Positions 1 to 35,259 of a stretch of DNA of 57,168 nucleotides are shown here, piece after piece. A program made the position numbers and the translations under genes. Position 1 is the stretch's first letter; each line of letters begins with the position of its first letter. This DNA comes from a virus (taxonomy: Duplodnaviria; Heunggongvirae; Uroviricota; Caudoviricetes): the IMG/VR virus record IMGVR_UViG_2537561944_000042. One strand, 5' to 3'. Below the pieces are notes generated by a model. It was not told where the DNA came from and searched no databases. It worked only from the letters and a program-made list of their open reading frames with translations.

Positions 1-101
1 CGTATTGCGCTGATCTTTGAATGACTTCAGGTAAGCATTATAGTCCGTGCGCAGCCCCAGCTTTTTAAGCTCAACGCGGGTCTGGCCTAATGTCAGCCTC
101 T

Positions 102-308
102 CTAATTTTTCTTCATCAAGGTTGTATCCCGGAAAAGAAACAAGAATTTTTTTAGGCCAAACTCTAGCAACTGTGCCTTGCCCATAAACAGACCGAACCG
201 TTCGATGAAGGGTTTACCCTCGTATATTTTGAGCCCAGCAAAAATCTTATCCCGAAGTTCCTGGCCACCCAGCGTATCAATATCCATGCGCGTTTCCTTT
301 TTAGACAT
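102..308 (-). CDS. hypothetical protein fragment; reading frame changes toward window start, probably disrupted or partial
   Basis: 68-aa ORF in track; positions 1..100 stay open in a different minus-strand frame; no recognisable motif. Confidence 0.2.
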   Translation of the reverse strand: MSKKETRMDIDTLGGQELRDKIFAGLKIYEGKPFIERFGLFMGKAQLLEFGLKKFLFLFRDTTLMKKN

Positions 309-404
309 TATTGGTAATGAAGTAACTTATTGAAGTTAGATGCACACATTATGTAAAGCTATTGGTAGTTGTGGACAGAAAACTCTTCTGTCCAGGTACA
401 GGGA

Positions 405-891
405 TTAATATGTAGTGAGGGGGGAACCGTACTCATCTATCACCCAGGAGGCCACAACAAGGACTGATTGATCGTCGTCGTCAACAAAAATGAACCCATG
501 CTTTTCATCTGCGCCATTCGTGAAGACTCGGGGATCATTTTTAAGTGAAACCCAGGAGGCGGTGTCTGGATCATGCCCTTTGTTACGGATGTTTCGAAGT
601 GCCGTTCTGGCAGATTCCCACTGTCTCATGATGTGTTGATTTGATTCCACCTCATGCAACAAATACTGCTTCAAACGAGAAATGGAAAGGAGCTGATTTG
701 GAGGTCTTCTGTAGACGTACATCATGTTCCCGTATCTCTTTGTTATCTGGCAAAGGTGCCAGTTTCGATATTGGGAAGGACCGGAAGGTTTTCAATAGCC
801 GATAGACATAAATTGCAGAACTTCCAGGCGGAACGTGAACGGAGCGGGTAATCAATGCCCGCTCCGTACCAGGAGCGTAAGTTGCTAACAA
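405..891 (-). pseudogene. hypothetical gene split over two overlapping frames (652..891 and 405..725), probable frameshift
   Basis: Two minus-strand ORFs overlap at ~705..725 and read as one protein if a 1-nt shift is allowed; no family recognised. Confidence 0.25.
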
Positions 892-1067
892 CAGTCTGAG
901 TTGATCAGCGGGGAGCAGGTCACTGGATTAGTTGAAAACTGGAACCTATTAGTTCCAGCCATTAATTAATAGCTTTCGAATTATTCTTGAAAAACAATCA
1001 AAAATAGTTGCCAAAACCAAATCAATTAGGACATATTAAACCCATGGTTTTTATTTGGAATTAGAGA

Positions 1068-1886
1068 ATGGAAATTCATGTTCCCATGGAAATGGTAGTA
1101 AGTGATGGAGAAGAAAGATTCACAGAGCTTGATTTTTACTATGGGTCAAAAGCACTTGAAGGCACGTCAGAGATAGTTACAGTCCTCACTAATACGATTC
1201 TAAATCGCGAAGTAGTTACTAAAATCCCATCAATCGAAGGCATAACCGCATCTTTTCGTACCAGTTATGAAGGGTCGTTTAGACAACGTTTCATGCTCAA
1301 GATCACAGGTGAGGAACAACGTAGAAACTATGGCGCAATCGGAGAGGGGGCATTTCTAGATGTTATGTCTTATTATCTTACAAGACCATTATTAACACCT
1401 TATAATTTCACATATAAAAGGGCTGCTAGAATTGTTAAAGAACTTGAGTCAGATTATAGTTCATTAATGAAGAGGCTTTATGGCCCACTATTGAAGCTTC
1501 ATAAGCCCATAGAAGAACAAAATTATACTGTTGAGCTGAAACGGAGAAGGACAAATCTTGCTCGGTATGATCACACGACCCTTGAAAATCTAATTGTTGA
1601 ACGTGCCGATGATGAAAGGATCATTATTGAAGCTTCTATTACAAGATTTAATCGGCTAACGGGGACGGGAAGGCTCATTCTTGAGGAAGATTCTGAGTCT
1701 GTAAGTTTTGAACCTTCATATCTTTGGAGAGATTTTCCAGCAGATCAAAAACGCTGGCTATCTAGAAACTTAGACGTCAACACAGATAATGGTGATTTTA
1801 CTCGTGTACGGCTAGAGGTGACATCAATCAGAAACTTTCTTGGTGTCATTAAAAAATATAGTCTTCACCGAGTTATAACGGATTGA
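1068..1886 (+). CDS. hypothetical soluble protein, first gene of AT-rich two-gene cassette (candidate defence/abortive-infection module)
   Basis: 272-aa ORF; AT-rich codon usage unlike flanking DNA; stop is 1 nt before the start of the next ORF; no motif recognised. Confidence 0.6.
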   Translation: MEIHVPMEMVVSDGEERFTELDFYYGSKALEGTSEIVTVLTNTILNREVVTKIPSIEGITASFRTSYEGSFRQRFMLKITGEEQRRNYGAIGEGAFLDVMSYYLTRPLLTPYNFTYKRAARIVKELESDYSSLMKRLYGPLLKLHKPIEEQNYTVELKRRRTNLARYDHTTLENLIVERADDERIIIEASITRFNRLTGTGRLILEEDSESVSFEPSYLWRDFPADQKRWLSRNLDVNTDNGDFTRVRLEVTSIRNFLGVIKKYSLHRVITD

Positions 1887-1887
1887 T

Positions 1888-2622
1888 ATGATAAAGTATG
1901 TTGCCTTTTTAGTTATATCAGTTACATGGTTGATTTATTTCTTCAATTTCGATCCGTTAAATGGTTTTCCAATTGATAAGTCTGAATGGGGAACATTTGG
2001 TGATTTCGTTGGCGGCGTAACCAACCCCATTTTGACATTTTTTACAATGATTATGTTAATTAAATCAATAAACTTACAAAAAGAGGCTAACATCAGCATT
2101 ATTAAACAAAATTTGCACATGCATGAGGTTTCAGAAAGACAAAAAGAAATTGATGACTTGCGCTCTTTTGAATCATCGTTTTATAGCCTCGCTGAAGTAT
2201 CTAGAAGAGAGTTTGATGCCCTCAGAATAACTGGTAGAAATAAAAAAAACTACTCAGCCTCAGATGCGGTAACCTATTTAGAGAGTTACATGATAAACTC
2301 ATGTAAGTCAAAAAATGCAGAAGAATTATGCAAACAATTTTCTATTTTTGATAATGAATCCTCTATGGCTCTCTTTTCTGCGGTTCGTAGTTTTTATATT
2401 CTATTTAAATTCACAAATGAATCTTGCCCAGAAAACCACAAAGAAAGATATTACGAAATAGCAAATTATACTATGCCTGTGAAATTTCTTCATTTGGTAT
2501 GTTTGGCATACGTATTTAGTGATTGGAAAATAATAAAAGACTTTGAAAGTTTCGGTTTTTTCAATCGCAAAGGATTAGATAAATACATCATGGATTTTAT
2601 GGATGTAAAGAACTTTTATTAG
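1888..2622 (+). CDS. predicted membrane protein with two N-terminal TM helices and WGxFGDFxGG motif; resembles putative phage abortive-infection membrane proteins
   Basis: 244-aa ORF; hydrophobic stretches FLVISVTWLIYFF and ILTFFTMIMLI; tightly coupled to upstream ORF; AT-rich. Confidence 0.6.
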   Translation: MIKYVAFLVISVTWLIYFFNFDPLNGFPIDKSEWGTFGDFVGGVTNPILTFFTMIMLIKSINLQKEANISIIKQNLHMHEVSERQKEIDDLRSFESSFYSLAEVSRREFDALRITGRNKKNYSASDAVTYLESYMINSCKSKNAEELCKQFSIFDNESSMALFSAVRSFYILFKFTNESCPENHKERYYEIANYTMPVKFLHLVCLAYVFSDWKIIKDFESFGFFNRKGLDKYIMDFMDVKNFY

Positions 2623-3025
2623 TTATCAAGATAATTTGACCCTTTGCTAGCCGTTCCCCTATCATCATGATAGTAAGCCGTATGTTTAGATGGTTTATGT
2701 CTGAGATTTTGAGTATCAAATCTTTGGGTCTCGTAAAAAGGTTTGAATCGCTAAGGATAATCTGGACGTCTCCAGGGTCGTTAATTAGACTGACCCCACC
2801 CCGATAGACGATCACTCCCCTATAGTAATAAGCACCATTTCGGACTTCCGCTTCTCGCTCACAACGGACCTTCAGCTCAGCCGCTCCGGCCGCTTCATGC
2901 AATGAATGTACGCAGCCAGTCAGAATATTAAGGTGCGGATTTCAGTTCACTTGTCAGCCCTGTGATGCAACAAGTTGCGGCTCCGGTTCGTGGGAGAGAT
3001 GAAACGACGGTAGCTGAAGTTACTG

Positions 3026-4164
3026 GTAAGCGTGCAGCAAGAACCGTATTGACGGGGATGTGTTATTCAGTCGGCAGTGCTACGCGCCAGGGGAGCAGTT
3101 CGCCGACCCGGTTTATCGGCCAGTCGGCTATGACGTCAAGGACATAGCGGAGGTAGCTTTCTGGCTCCACTCCGTTCAGTTTGCACGTCCCGATCAGGCT
3201 GTACAGCAGCGCTCCCCGCTCTCCTCCATGATCCGAACCGAAGAACAGGTAGTTTTTGCGGCCCAGACTGACCATCCGCAACGCATTTTCAGCGATGTTA
3301 TTGTCCGCCTCAGCCCAGCCATCATCTGCATAGTACGTCAGCGCCGGCCACTGGTTCAGGGCGTATGCGAACGCTTTCGCCAGTTCTGAGTGTCGCGACA
3401 GGGTTTTCATCTTTTCACGCAGCCAGCTTTCCAGGGATTTCAGCAGCGGTTTCGTTTTCAACTGACGTTCGGCAAGGCGCTGCTCCGCCGTCATTCCCCT
3501 TATCTCTGCCTCGATGGCGTACAGTTCGCCGATCCGTTTCAGCGCTTCCTCCGTCAGGGCTGACGGGGTGCGAACGTGCACATCGTGGATTTTACGGCGG
3601 GCGTGAGCCCAACAGGCGGCTTCCGTTATCCGGCCATCCCGGTACAGCTCGTTGAACCCGGCGTATGCATCCGCCTGCAGTACACCACTGAACCCCGCAA
3701 GATGGGTCTGCGGATGGATGCCTTTTCTGTCCGGGCTGTAAGCGAACAACACCGCCGGCGCCAGCGTTGACCCGGCGTTACGGTCGTCACGAACGTAGGT
3801 CCATAACCGCCCGGTCTTCGTTTTCTTATTGCCTGGCAACAGCACCGGGACAGGCGTGTCATCAGCATGGAGCTTACCGTCAGTCAGCACATAGTCCTGA
3901 AGCGCTTCTTCCAGCGGTGACAGTAGCCGGCAGCATGCATCCACCCAGCCCGACAGCAGTGAACGACTCAGCTCCACGCCCTGGCGGCCGTACATTTCAG
4001 ACTGGCGGTACAGCGGGGTGTGCTCTGCATACTTTGAGATCAGCACGCGGGCCAGCAGCCCCGGTCCTGCGATACCCCGCTCGATGGGCCGTGAAGGCGC
4101 GGGGGCCTGCACGATGGCATCGCACTGAGTACAGGCATGCTTTTCACGTACAGTCCGGATAACC
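3026..4164 (-). mobile_element. 5'-truncated IS66-family element remnant (3' part of tnpC plus right terminus), cut by the adjacent IS66 copy
   Basis: Terminus GTAAGCGTGCAGCAAGAACCGTATTGA at 3026 matches the terminus of the full copy at 4165; protein homology to TnpC runs up to ~4160. Confidence 0.6.
3063..4112 (-). pseudogene. IS66-family transposase TnpC, N-terminally truncated (C-terminal ~2/3 only)
   Basis: 349-aa ORF aligns to residues ~175-523 of the neighbouring full-length TnpC ([26 protein letters not shown] blocks); track start is GTG. Confidence 0.75.
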
Positions 4165-33243: not shown

Positions 33244-33863
33244 GACTCGAAAGCGTAGCTAAATTTCATTCGCCAAAAAGCCCGATGATGAGCGACTCAC
33301 CACGGGCTACGGCTTCTGACTCTCTTTCCGGTACTGATGTGATGGCTGCTATGGGGATGGCGCAATCACAAGCCGGATTCGGAATGGCTGCATTCTGCGG
33401 TAAGCATGAACTCAGCCAGAACGACAAACAAAAGGCTATCAACTATCTGATGCAATTTGCACACAAGGTATCGGGGAAATACCGTGGCGTGGCAAAGCTT
33501 GAAGGAAATACTAAGGCAAAGGTACTGCAAGTGCTCGCAACATTCGCTTATGCGGATTATTGCCGTAGTGCCGCGACGCCGGGCGCAAGATGCAGAGATT
33601 GTCACGGTACAGGCCGTGCGGTTGATATAGCAAAAACAGAGCAGTGGGGGAGAGTTGTTGAGAAAGAGTGCGGAAGATGCAAAGGCGTCGGCTATTCAAG
33701 GATGCCAGCAAGTGCCGCATATCGCGCTGTAACGATGCTAATCCCAAACCTTACTCAACCCACCTGGTCACGCACTGTTAAGCCGCTGTATGACGCTCTG
33801 GTGGTGCAATGCCACAAGGAAGAGTCAATCGCAGACAACATTTTGAACGCGGTCACACGTTAG
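33240..33863 (+). CDS. Q: late-gene antiterminator Q (lambda Q-like)
   Basis: 207 aa from ATG at 33240; [28 protein letters not shown]... and C-terminal zinc-binding CRDCHGTGR...CGRCKG match lambda Q as recalled. Confidence 0.9.
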
Positions 33864-33899
33864 CAGCATGATTGCCACGGATGGCAACATATTAACGGC

Positions 33900-33941
33900 A
33901 TGATATTGACTTATTGAATAAAGTTGGGTAAATTTGACCCA
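33900..33941 (+). promoter_or_regulatory. late promoter pR'-like with overlapping qut site
   Basis: TTGACT (33906..33911) then 17 bp then TAAATT (33929..33934); sequence parallels lambda pR' as recalled. Confidence 0.6.
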
Positions 33942-34134
33942 ACGATGGGTTAATTCGCTCGTTGTGGTATTGAGATAAAAAGAGGCGGCGCTTACTACCG
34001 ATTCCGCCCAGTTGGTCACTTCGACGTATCGTCTGGAACTCCAACCATCGCAGGCTGAGAGGTCTGCAAAATGCAATCCCGAAACAGTTCGCAGGTAATA
34101 GTTAGAGCCTGCATAACGGTTTCGGGATTTTTTA
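33941..34134 (+). ncRNA. 6S-like short late leader transcript (pR' to tR')
   Basis: ~194 nt between the inferred pR' start and the tR' hairpin, as in lambda. Confidence 0.45.
34078..34134 (+). terminator. tR'-like rho-independent terminator
   Basis: CCCGAAAC ... GCAGG/CCTGC ... GGTTTCGGG stem followed by ATTTTTTAT. Confidence 0.7.
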
Positions 34135-34143
34135 TATCTGTGT

Positions 34144-34499
34144 AACAGGTAAGAGCATTCTCCCTTATGGGGCTTGGCTTAAATGCACCGAGTGCTCTTA
34201 TCGTTGTGGCAGCACAACGATAGTTTTCGTCAGAGTTGGCGACTTTGCGGTTTTTTAGAAACTGACCACAAAGATAAATGCAAACGATGATGTTGTTCTG
34301 ATGGCGGCGTAATAGCCTGTAAGTCAGCAAGGTCTTCCGACTCCTTGTAAACAAATTCGGCGCACTGGCCCGGTGTGATTAATAATGGGCACACAACAGG
34401 TAAGAGCATTAAAGAACTGGCAAAGAGCTTAACGGTCTGCGAAAGCATTTCTTAGTGGCACAACTGGCCGGTACAACTGAGTGCTCTTTCCGGTGTGGT
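34144..34499. repeat. imperfect direct repeat in the Q-S leader: AACAGGTAAGAGCATT ... GAGTGCTCTT(A/T)(T/C)CG(T/G)TGTGG at 34144..34209 and 34395..34499
   Basis: Both 16-mer and 20-mer blocks occur twice, ~250 bp apart. Confidence 0.4.
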
Positions 34500-34935
34500 G
34501 AATGCGCAGGCTGATGCGCGCAGGAGAGCTTCGGAAGAACAAGGTGCCTGTATACAAGCCGGAGATCAGCGCCGGCCACCACAGCCAAATCCACCCAGAG
34601 CAAAACCGTTGTTCATCCTTACCATTCACTCAGTATTTTGGGCTACACCATCAGCCCATTTTTTAAAGCGTACTTCCACCAAGAACCAGACCTAACCAAC
34701 TCATTGCTGACACTCTGTGGATACGGTTGTCTAGTACGCTTTAAAAAAGAAAACCCAGCATCAATGGCTGGGCTTCGTGATATGAGCGGCATGTATTGTT
34801 GGCGCAATCCACGCCTGATTTGCTCATGAATGCGGTCACGAACAAACCCGTTACAAATCAACCGTAACCCGGATTTGTTCAAGCGACCATATCCATAATT
34901 CCTAATTTGAACAGATCCCCTTCTGGGGGTAAGAC

Positions 34936-35259
34936 ATGAAGATGCCAGAAAAACATGACCTGTTAGCCGCTATTCTCGCGGCAAAGGAACAAGGCATCGG
35001 GGCAATCCTTGCGTTTGCAATGGCGTACCTTCGCGGCAGATATAATGGCGGTGCGTTTACAAAAACAGTAATCGACGCAACGATGTGTGCCATTATCGCC
35101 TGGTTCATTCGTGACCTTCTCGACTTCGCCGGACTAAGTAGCAATCTCGCTTATATAACGAGCGTGTTCATCGGCTACATCGGTACTGACTCGATTGGTT
35201 CGCTTATCAAACGCTTCGCTGCTAAAAAAGCCGGAGTAGAAGATGGTGGAAATCAATAA
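34936..35259 (+). CDS. S: holin S (class I, dual-start MKM)
   Basis: 107-aa ORF essentially identical to lambda S as recalled; three TM segments. Confidence 0.9.

Follow-up and report, generated by a model that had tools for sequence, protein, structure and literature searches.

A tmRNA-derived RNA with a conserved tag frame in the lambda-type late leader of a caudovirus and in other phages of Enterobacterales

In trans-translation as it is known, the tag template is joined to an alanyl-accepting tRNA-like domain (TLD); in the transfer-messenger RNA (tmRNA) of E. coli the tag is ANDENYALAA. Some lambdoid hybrids, like Mu, have long been known to depend on the tmRNA of their host. Surveys for tmRNAs that include viral genomes use ARAGORN, Rfam or BLAST and have brought to light phage tmRNAs as well as one TLD-only case (PMC4131195, PMC11915505). 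In Shiga toxin (Stx) phages, the slot behind the late terminator tR' is occupied by the tRNA genes ileZ-argN-argO, by stx and by StxS, a small RNA (sRNA) (PMC7547250). Here we analysed IMG/VR virus record IMGVR_UViG_2537561944_000042 (Caudoviricetes), a stretch of 57,168 nucleotides to which we refer as the window. Its late leader, between the genes Q and S, carries a cassette consisting, in this order, of the hairpin HP1, a tmRNA-derived core, the hairpin HP2, RNA B and a terminator. Coordinates are those of the window and features lie on the plus strand unless stated otherwise; loci used for comparison carry L numbers.

The tmRNA-derived core and its tag frame

The core (34219..34390, 172 nt) was identified by matches to Rfam tmRNA models, tag conservation, covariation and colinearity with E. 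coli ssrA. At 34280-34315 it reads GCA AAC GAT GAT GTT GTT CTG ATG GCG GCG TAA TAG, preceded by AAAGAUAAAU. This corresponds to a resume codon GCA at 34280, a tag open reading frame (ORF) of 10 codons encoding ANDDVVLMAA (34280-34309) and the stop codons UAA UAG (34310-34315). The frame has no start codon: an in-frame TAG is present 8 codons upstream, with neither ATG nor GTG between.

An exact search of viral contigs with the 18-nt resume motif found at least 120 stretches which, together with HK620, swi2 and the window, make 123 matches. A 10-residue tag of the form A-N-[D/E]-x-x-[hydrophobic]-L-x-[A/V]-A is encoded by 121 of the 123 matches listed, in 120 cases within cores devoid of a TLD. 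Two loci sharing the motif are genuine two-piece tmRNAs (called 'permuted' by ARAGORN; L006 matches RF04321 at 101.9 bits): L021, whose tag has 10 residues, and L006, whose tag has 14. One match ends at its locus border. Further variants with altered codons were obtained by a second search keyed on the conserved hairpin loop. Every one of the 32 distinct nucleotide versions has 10 codons and a stop, while the codons themselves have turned over: Ala10 is encoded by all four codons, Leu7 by CTG or TTG, Ala1 by GCA or GCT and Asn2 by AAC or AAT, and the stop is TAA, TAG or TGA. As a control, about 40 unrelated matches of the 18-mer were found in 596 Gb of bacterial genomes, mostly within coding regions, and their frames run on randomly. 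The fixed length of 10 codons, the synonymous and stop turnover and the random frames of the control indicate a translated frame rather than a decaying fragment; the tag frame is under protein-level selection.

The surroundings of the tag resemble those in tmRNA as well. In a permissive Rfam scan, three tmRNA models matched 34258-34361, the best of them with 26.3 bits (E 0.0098 in 3 kb). The same spot was matched in L177 (34.9 bits) and L194 with E about 1e-3, and in phage Alf5 positions 56-295 of RF00023 were matched (E 2e-4, 15.4 bits). By local alignment, the core is colinear with nt 54-155 of E. coli ssrA, i.e. the second half of pseudoknot 1 (PK1), the tag, helix 5 and the start of PK2. 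Covariation was scored in alignment A2 of 66 non-redundant cores, on a structure read from that same alignment. The stop codon is enclosed by a helix resembling helix 5 (34298-34301 / 34324-34327), in which 4 of 4 pairs are compensated (CUGG/CCAG, CUGA/UCAG, UGAU/AUCA, UGGC/GCCA). Next to it, two stems form an H-type pseudoknot: stem 1 (34328-34332 / 34343-34347; 3 of 5 pairs compensated) occurs as CAAGG/CCUUG, UGAGG/CCUCA, CGGGG/CCCCG or CAUGG/CCAUG, and stem 2 (34337-34340 / 34357-34360; 2 of 4 pairs compensated), in which the stem-1 loop pairs with downstream sequence, as CCGA/UCGG, CCAG/CUGG or CCAA/UUGG. In the test of the stop helix and the pseudoknot, 99% of cells were paired. Finally, the stem of hairpin Hx (34368-34371 / 34387-34390, loop GGUGUGAUUAAUAAU) is fully exchanged among cores (GCCC/GGGC, GCCCUGA/UCAGGGC, GGCGGGAG/CUCCCGCC), the loop GUGUGAUUAAUAA being invariant. 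For the core overall, 89.9% of cells were paired, compared with 31-47% when the partner was slid by 1-3 columns; compensatory double changes were present in 15 of 29 pairs, and 0 of 500 shuffles attained the observed values.

As for the 5' part, the core has an invariant 5' motif, GAUAGUUUUCG, and its invariant 5' end, (A)GUUUUCG..GCGACUUUGCGG, is like the D-loop analogue of tmRNA together with the next strand (GGAUUCGACGGGAUUUGCG in E. coli, AGGUUCGACUGCAG in L006). The 5' acceptor strand expected ahead of such a start is absent. In phages which provide the core with its own promoter (L003, L053, L088, Alf5/Moogle, Harbringer), unrelated promoters set the start 5-8 nt before the 5' motif. A candidate for PK1, CUUUGCGG / CCACAAAG, lines up with the second of the two PK1 stems in E. 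coli but contains a fixed C.A mismatch. The core is thus derived from tmRNA, and its helices are under selection.

Insertion at a lambda-type hairpin, and the accompanying RNAs

The Q stop is located at 33863 and the start of the lambda-type holin gene S at 34936, which gives a leader of 1072 nt. The Q-S interval of lambda (L002 1501-2176) measures 676 nt and is 396 nt shorter, in agreement with the original prediction, made from the sequence alone, of a leader about 400 bp longer than that of lambda. The pR'-qut-6S-tR' block, which had also been said to resemble lambda, is co-linear with lambda 44510-44805 and 97% identical to it across 296 nt. It contains the lambda-like late promoter pR' (33906..33934, TTGACT-17-TAAATT) and, upstream of the cassette, a hairpin followed by TTTTTT (34075..34135, arms 34075-34089 / 34115-34129). 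Given established knowledge of lambda and the co-linearity with it, we take this hairpin to be the terminator tR', which marks the end of the lambda 6S-type RNA. From the Q stop through AACAGGTAAGAGCAT (34144-34158) the window remains about 97% like lambda; past this point, pairwise alignment revealed no relation to lambda before about 30 nt upstream of S. Co-linearity with lambda therefore does not hold throughout the leader and ends inside the 5' arm of lambda's own HP hairpin, of which lambda has exactly one (L002 1785-1847, i.e. lambda 44794-44856). The roughly 185 nt between the two hairpins of the window and the roughly 100 nt 3' of them are unique, with no counterpart in lambda, while HK620 aligns nearly identically to the window from the core to S.

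The sequence AACAGGTAAGAGCATT is present at both 34144-34159 and 34395-34410 (16/16 identical), and the 3' ends ACCGAGTGCTCTTATCGTTGTGG (34187-34209) and ACTGAGTGCTCTTTCCGGTGTGG (34476-34498), 23 nt each, are 83% alike; by our own estimate, about 2e-4 chance occurrences of an exact 16-mer repeat would be expected in 1.2 kb. The original prediction had taken this for a repeated segment, i.e. an internal duplication, which might alter Q-dependent readthrough or hold the remnant of a former insert. The arms do recur, but the enclosed 27 and 65 nt are unrelated to each other, and only the arms are repeated. In both units the 5' arm is inversely complementary to the 3' arm of that same unit, so that two hairpins of one family are present rather than two copies of one stretch; the anomaly is genuine, but it was misdescribed. 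The window follows lambda as far as the 5' arm of HP and then diverges, and lambda has a single HP; the extra sequence is therefore an insert and not a duplication. Nor is it a remnant, but rather the intact insert, which is common to other prophages and phages and bears structures supported by covariation. That the insert occupies the moron/tRNA slot downstream of tR' and is non-coding had been recognised correctly: ARAGORN detected neither tRNA nor tmRNA in the whole window, a PHROG search of seven leader ORFs matched no family, and 1-nt indels separate the homologues. What is observed here is an intact, widely shared RNA cassette inserted at a pre-existing lambda-type hairpin.

Structure prediction folds both repeated units as hairpins. 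HP1 (34138..34212; 5' arm 34144-34159, 3' arm 34187-34209, 27-nt interior) reaches -29.5 kcal/mol on the plus strand (z -3.65) against -17.9 on the minus strand, and HP2 (34391..34499; 5' arm 34395-34410, 3' arm 34476-34498, 65-nt interior) -33.6 against -22.7 kcal/mol. Since the plus strand folds far better, and since a U.G pair near the top turns into a C-A mismatch on the other strand, the HP structure belongs to the sense of the late transcript. Its lower stem is CACAAC/GUUGUG; between this and an upper stem of 9-10 bp (AAGAGCAUU/AGUGCUCUU) lie a bulged A, GG/CC and a U-U mismatch. Across 54 distinct arm sets 14 of 20 pairs were compensated, a set picked for paired arms and therefore biased, so that the statistics of the upper arms are inflated; the lower stem, which was not used for selection, is compensated too (as in CUAUC/GAUAG, at a hairpin directly adjoining the core). 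The flanking hairpins are thus conserved structures, and so is RNA B. We considered, and rejected, a long-range pairing between the 5' arm of HP1 and the 3' arm of HP2: the two hairpins of L060 have arms that differ between them and match internally, which indicates local hairpins. HP1 is linked to the core by a perfect 11-bp hairpin (UAUCGUUGUGG CAGC.., 34198..34223; -14.2 kcal/mol, z -6.9), which is terminator-like, with UUUUCG directly after it.

HP interiors measure 12-238 nt and belong to many unrelated types, yet single types recur across very different phages; that of HP1, for instance, is also found directly 3' of tRNA genes in P1-like plasmids and after the core in Mooglevirus. The hairpins are located between consecutive RNA modules and ahead of tRNA genes, and in most loci an HP comes after the core, at a spacing that is fixed. 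Felixounavirus has a plain hairpin with a perfect stem of 16 bp at the HP position. The geometry is of RNase III type: a lower stem of 6-7 bp, GG/CC and 9-10 bp with a bulge and a mismatch, together about two turns of mostly double-stranded RNA. Most simply, HP would be a double-stranded stem that a host enzyme recognises and that serves in processing or stabilisation. Daniels et al. 1988 (Virology 167:568; cited in PMC7547250) refer in their title to RNase III processing sites in the Q-mediated late RNA of lambda. Other models for HP (integron attC, miniature inverted-repeat transposable element (MITE), CRISPR (clustered regularly interspaced short palindromic) repeat, self-cleaving ribozyme core) were dismissed upon inspection, as their sequence patterns are unlike it.

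RNA B (module B, 34491..34587; -39.1 kcal/mol, z -2.4) is a three-armed, cloverleaf-like RNA with a closing stem GGUGUGGUG / CACCACA, the hairpins GCGC-AGGCUGAU-GCGC and GCCGG-AGAUCAGCG-CCGGC and a variable middle of 33 to 162 nt across copies. Its loops AGGCUGAU and GAUCAGC are complementary and could kiss. Among 24 distinct copies, both hairpins are compensated and one loop-loop double change was found (GUCGA/UCGAC, L048). In the window it terminates in CACCACA-G-CCA, but the CCA is not conserved elsewhere. RNA B without the core exists in P1-like plasmids, and the core without RNA B elsewhere, which marks the two as independent modules.

Directly after the cassette lies an intrinsic-terminator-like hairpin with T6 (34639..34664); by alignment, it maps to the 'late transcription terminator tQ' of the HK620 annotation. 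For an effect on Q-dependent readthrough, as raised in the original prediction, the analysis offers evidence neither for nor against. Next comes a leader hairpin found by inverted-repeat search, with a perfect 16-bp stem UUUUUUAAAGCGUACU / AGUACGCUUUAAAAAA (TTTTTTAAAGCGTACT / AGTACGCTTTAAAAAA) and a 58-nt loop (34659..34748). At its place, as judged by eye, the leaders of L020 and L060 have a hairpin with different yet complementary arms. A further hairpin, at 34750-34776 after this repeat, looks like an intrinsic terminator when the minus strand is read. In HK620 (L001), 'tQ' is annotated downstream of the RNA cassette (2222-2248), and a strong terminator-like hairpin, GCCCTGAGTTAATAGCTCGGGGC with T5, is present just past qut and upstream of the cassette (about 1600-1640). 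Which of the two stops unantiterminated pR' RNA decides whether the cassette is expressed constitutively in lysogens. Another module, 'C', not found in the window, occurs in L005, L008, L030 and L053 about 190-340 nt past the resume motif (..UUCGUGGGUAACAACGGGCAUGUCGCCUUAGUAAAUCCC....GCCGUUAGCUCCACGAAACG, closed by UUCGUGG/CCACGAA) and is preceded by a variant hairpin, CACCCAC-C-AAUGAGAGCAUU / AGUGCUCUCAUU-C-GUGGGU.

Distribution of the core and search for a tRNA-like domain

The core matches 758 of 50,697 phage records. Its carriers include lambdoid phages (HK620), P1, T1-like siphoviruses, N4-like Gamaleyavirus, Felix O1-like Ounavirinae, Vi01-like Ackermannviridae and Erwinia phages, and the hosts are all Enterobacterales. 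Among 5426 complete E. coli genomes, 473 contain some part of the query 34140-34600 and 76 at least 80% of it; the strains E2865, H19, 97-3250 and 03-3013 are identical to the window. Identity to the cassette reaches 100% in other prophages and is 72-93% in many unrelated phages. Most matches are unannotated, and a few bear 'hypothetical protein' calls.

Usually the core adjoins tRNA genes, and often it has its own promoter. In HK620 it resides in the late leader and has the tag ANEEMYLAVA. The siphovirus swi2 has a core block about 80% identical in an unannotated gap, with a good sigma-70 promoter upstream and tRNA-Met downstream. In P1 (L197 1800-2060; AF234172.1 about 68886-69146), an unannotated core with the tag ANDDLMMVAA and HP is located in the leader of the C1-repressed ban operon, between the 'dicF-like region' and tRNA-Asn/tRNA-Thr. 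The P1-like plasmid NZ_CP027575.1 (L124 2498-3330) has about 800 nt devoid of annotated genes after tRNA-Asn/Tyr/Thr; this stretch contains an HP with the HP1 interior, a compensated copy of module B and a second HP, and no tmRNA-like core. About 264 E. coli plasmids of about 95 kb match the HP1 part. Approximately 1 kb downstream of the core of L068, in the same non-coding/tRNA region, the minus strand (1118-1331) matches the Rfam sRNA family STnc100 at 48.7 bits, above the gathering score.

A TLD was sought in several ways. Over the window and the 123 loci, ARAGORN called no tmRNA at the core, except for a spurious call in swi2 that borrows tRNA-Met. Rfam alignments of the core skip all TLD positions, and permissive Rfam scans, which also covered divergent loci, placed a TLD nowhere in the whole 57-kb window. 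Neither module B nor the HPs matched an Rfam tRNA model, with E values as high as 10 admitted. We also scanned for CCA preceded by one base, 7 nt and a T-arm, with a matching 5' strand; this retrieved only ordinary tRNAs and, in contigs of Ackermannviridae size, a 126-nt tRNA-like element. Complements of the conserved 5' segments of the core were not found within the window, and the predicted duplex of the core with E. coli tmRNA was no better than that of shuffled sequence. Since tmRNA finders key on the tRNA-like domain, they miss the core.

Several tRNA-like sequences were encountered on the way. The swi2 call (L003 2649-3023), an ARAGORN 'tmRNA' with the nonsense tag AKAVRLRKCSFRCGECAG, uses the 3' half of the adjoining tRNA-Met; calls of this kind may be the source of some 'tmRNA' reports for related siphoviruses, the true tag frame 100 nt upstream having been overlooked. 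The 126-nt element of Vi01-like phages (GCCGUUA-UAUCUGA...UUGGGUUCGACUCCCUA-AAACGGC-U-CCA) has a T-arm and an encoded CCA, is missed by ARAGORN and follows the core directly or after about 100 nt in L054, L068, L083, L176, L181, L184, L199, L200 and L203. In Felixounavirus Alf5 (L198 1365-1447), and likewise in BPS17W1 (L205), there is an unannotated, D-arm-less tRNA-like gene with the anticodon loop CUUCUAA (UCU), a long variable arm and an acceptor CGGGGCG/CGCCUCG with G3.U70, A73 and CCA. It combines alanine identity marks with an Arg-type anticodon arm, and its anticodon stem covaries between Alf5 and BPS17W1. As a partner of the core it was rejected, because its place in Mooglevirus is taken by a normal tRNA-Arg(UCU) whose anticodon arm is the same, and we read it as an odd tRNA. 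Module B was rejected as a TLD too: its terminal G-CCA is not conserved in other copies, and B without core and core without B both occur.

Possible roles and comparison with known systems

We propose that the extra sequence of the late leader is a cassette that encodes structured non-coding RNAs and is horizontally mobile. It would have recombined into a lambda-type late leader at the hairpin already present in lambda. From its position between tR' and S, it would be made within the pR' late transcript after Q antitermination, while in virulent phages an own sigma-70 promoter would start the core RNA at (A)GUUUUCG. The HP stems might be cut by an enzyme of RNase III type, releasing the RNAs between them; a processing or stabilising role is suggested by irregular, strand-specific stems of about 20 bp kept by compensatory changes. 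The released core might then supply, or interfere with, a tagging template for trans-translation during infection, which is the weakest step of the proposal. The setting would be one in which phage tRNA cargo and host defences cutting tRNAs and mRNAs make stalled ribosomes frequent. Taken as a whole, i.e. with expression, processing and function, we hold this explanation with moderate confidence: the identity and conservation of the element are well supported, its mechanism is not.

Several points weigh against the proposal. Every tmRNA model score is below the Rfam gathering threshold (47), and the PK1-like pairing upstream of the resume codon shows no covariation at all. The selection bias in the HP arm sets has to be kept in mind. 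A TLD, an acceptor stem or a conserved CCA belonging to the core was found in no locus, and a tag without a tRNA-like domain is not decodable by the known mechanism. The cassette is flanked by tR' upstream and by a second terminator downstream, which bears on the amount of transcript. Finally, to identify the RNase III sites of the lambda late leader with HP is a guess, to be taken as a lead and not as a result.

If the tag is decoded, hundreds of enterobacterial phages might encode a free-standing tag template, i.e. a tmRNA message domain decoded without a TLD of its own. We put this forward tentatively, as a possibility that is less probable than not. Three routes are conceivable: a split tmRNA, whose acceptor would be formed across the flanking hairpin or come from another RNA; capture of ribosomes already engaged by host tmRNA-SmpB; or entry that needs no initiator and is driven by the pseudoknot, the product being a free ssrA-like peptide that would act as a decoy for ClpXP and SspB. 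Each of these routes would amount to an undescribed mode of trans-translation or tagging and would give phages a means of re-programming protein quality control. If, as the pattern of selection indicates, the core is functional, then well-studied phages (P1, HK620, Vi01 and relatives of Felix O1) carry an overlooked RNA gene for ribosome rescue or ssrA tagging. It would offer an experimental handle on the tmRNA dependence of lambdoid hybrids and Mu and bear on how phages cope with RNA-cutting defences, and the HP family and RNA B would be new families of structured RNAs associated with phage tRNA arrays. In addition, HP and B mark the exact seams of late-leader module exchange between phages. 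No description of a TLD-less phage tmRNA was found in the searchable literature, and the element appears to be an undescribed, widespread phage RNA related to tmRNA.

The absence of a TLD would be natural if the core were a decoy that titrates tmRNA factors (S1, the SmpB tail, RNase R) and so blunts trans-translation or non-stop decay. Such an RNA would be the mirror image of that of DS6A, a TLD-only phage tmRNA for which an inhibitory effect has been reported (PMC4131195, PMC11915505), and the elements reported as needed for RNase R engagement, the last tag codons and helix 5 (PMC4176180), are retained in the core. However, synonymous turnover, the fixed length of 10 codons and stop turnover point to translation and not to binding alone, and complementarity to host tmRNA is no greater than chance; we consider a decoy unlikely.

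Somewhat less probable still is that the HPs are split acceptor stems as in permuted tmRNA genes, the interior being excised and CCA added post-transcriptionally. The core would pair through its 3' end with the beginning of the RNA that follows it, the third-from-top G.U would serve as alanine identity, and the whole would be a new tmRNA permutation. A tag under selection does require some acceptor, and the core starts exactly at the position of the D-loop analogue, lacking only the 5' acceptor strand. The U.G is third from the top of HP in 44 of 54 arm sets, even where the remaining stem is fully compensated, and was present in 134 of 256 hairpin detections of a wider scan that counted reverse-strand copies, compared with 31 C-G and 29 U-A. 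By eye, a 5-bp hairpin, 7 nt and a single A precede many HPs (L007, L179), a tRNA-like geometry. Against this, CCA follows the 5' arm in just 9 of the 256 hairpins and there is no conserved discriminator base; Felixounavirus has a plain hairpin without this top; the cores of L020, L173 and L177 have no HP after them; and no T-loop adjoins the stem. The G.U may simply have been inherited.

That the core is a decaying piece of host ssrA, acquired by imprecise prophage excision, is very improbable and largely refuted. It is true that ssrA is a common prophage attachment site and that ssrA fragments in prophages have been mentioned (PMC9004378). Yet attP-type fragments bear the 3' end of ssrA rather than the middle, the core has no more than a distant similarity to enterobacterial ssrA, and it is present in virulent phages with its own promoter, with the frame intact in 32 variants and with covariation. 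A simple tandem duplication within the leader, or an inert relic of a moron since lost, could account for the repeated arms of 16-23 nt but is refuted by the unrelated interiors and inter-arm sequence and by the conservation of the block, with compensatory changes, in hundreds of phages. Equally negligible is the chance that the region encodes small proteins on either strand: mechanical ORFs of 35-112 aa overlap it and lambda has the annotated orf-64 nearby, but 0 of 7 ORFs match PHROG, 1-nt indels occur throughout the homologues, and the conservation pattern is that of RNA helices.

Set beside known systems, the HPs are like the RNase III hairpins of the T7 early region and the lambda late leader in being irregular stems of about 20 bp, with a mismatch and a bulge, between transcript units; a target of a host enzyme would explain their use by unrelated phages. 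They differ in that their top is conserved (GCAUU/AGUGC with U.G) and that their interiors are of many types, each conserved, neither of which is, to our knowledge, a feature of RNase III sites, and as sites they are here only predicted. The place of the cassette resembles the cargo slot of Stx phages, between a Q-controlled terminator and the lysis genes, where, judging from position, it would travel as non-essential RNA cargo with the late transcript; the cargo itself is neither tRNA nor toxin, but a tmRNA-like RNA with other structured RNAs.

With standard tmRNA (RF00023, E. coli ssrA) the core has in common the GCA resume codon with its A-rich upstream context, a 10-codon A-N-D-...-A-A tag resembling that of E. 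coli, and a double stop in a helix-5-like stem with a pseudoknot directly after, in the order of ssrA nt 54-155. Unlike standard tmRNA, it has no acceptor stem, T-arm or encoded CCA and only one pseudoknot after the tag; it is about 172 nt long as opposed to about 360 nt, is phage-borne beside tRNA genes, and its model scores are sub-threshold. Two-piece tmRNA genes (RF04321/RF01850; L006; phage Melnitz, PMC9004378) are similar in that L006 and L021 share the identical 18-nt resume motif, in the 5' motif like the D-loop analogue, and in an adjoining stem with a variable 'intervening' interior. In the permuted genes, however, a canonical T-arm, an acceptor with G3.U70 and ACCA are present upstream of the coding piece, as in L006, and the cassette has none of these; the position of the acceptor piece is taken by a promoter in siphovirus and Ounavirinae cores and by an upstream HP in others. 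The TLD-only tmRNA of DS6A (PMC4131195, PMC11915505) is another case of a phage with half a tmRNA, with the halves reversed: DS6A keeps the TLD without a tag frame, whereas the core described here keeps the tag frame without a TLD. By analogy, this suggests that partial tmRNA molecules are used by phages to manipulate trans-translation.

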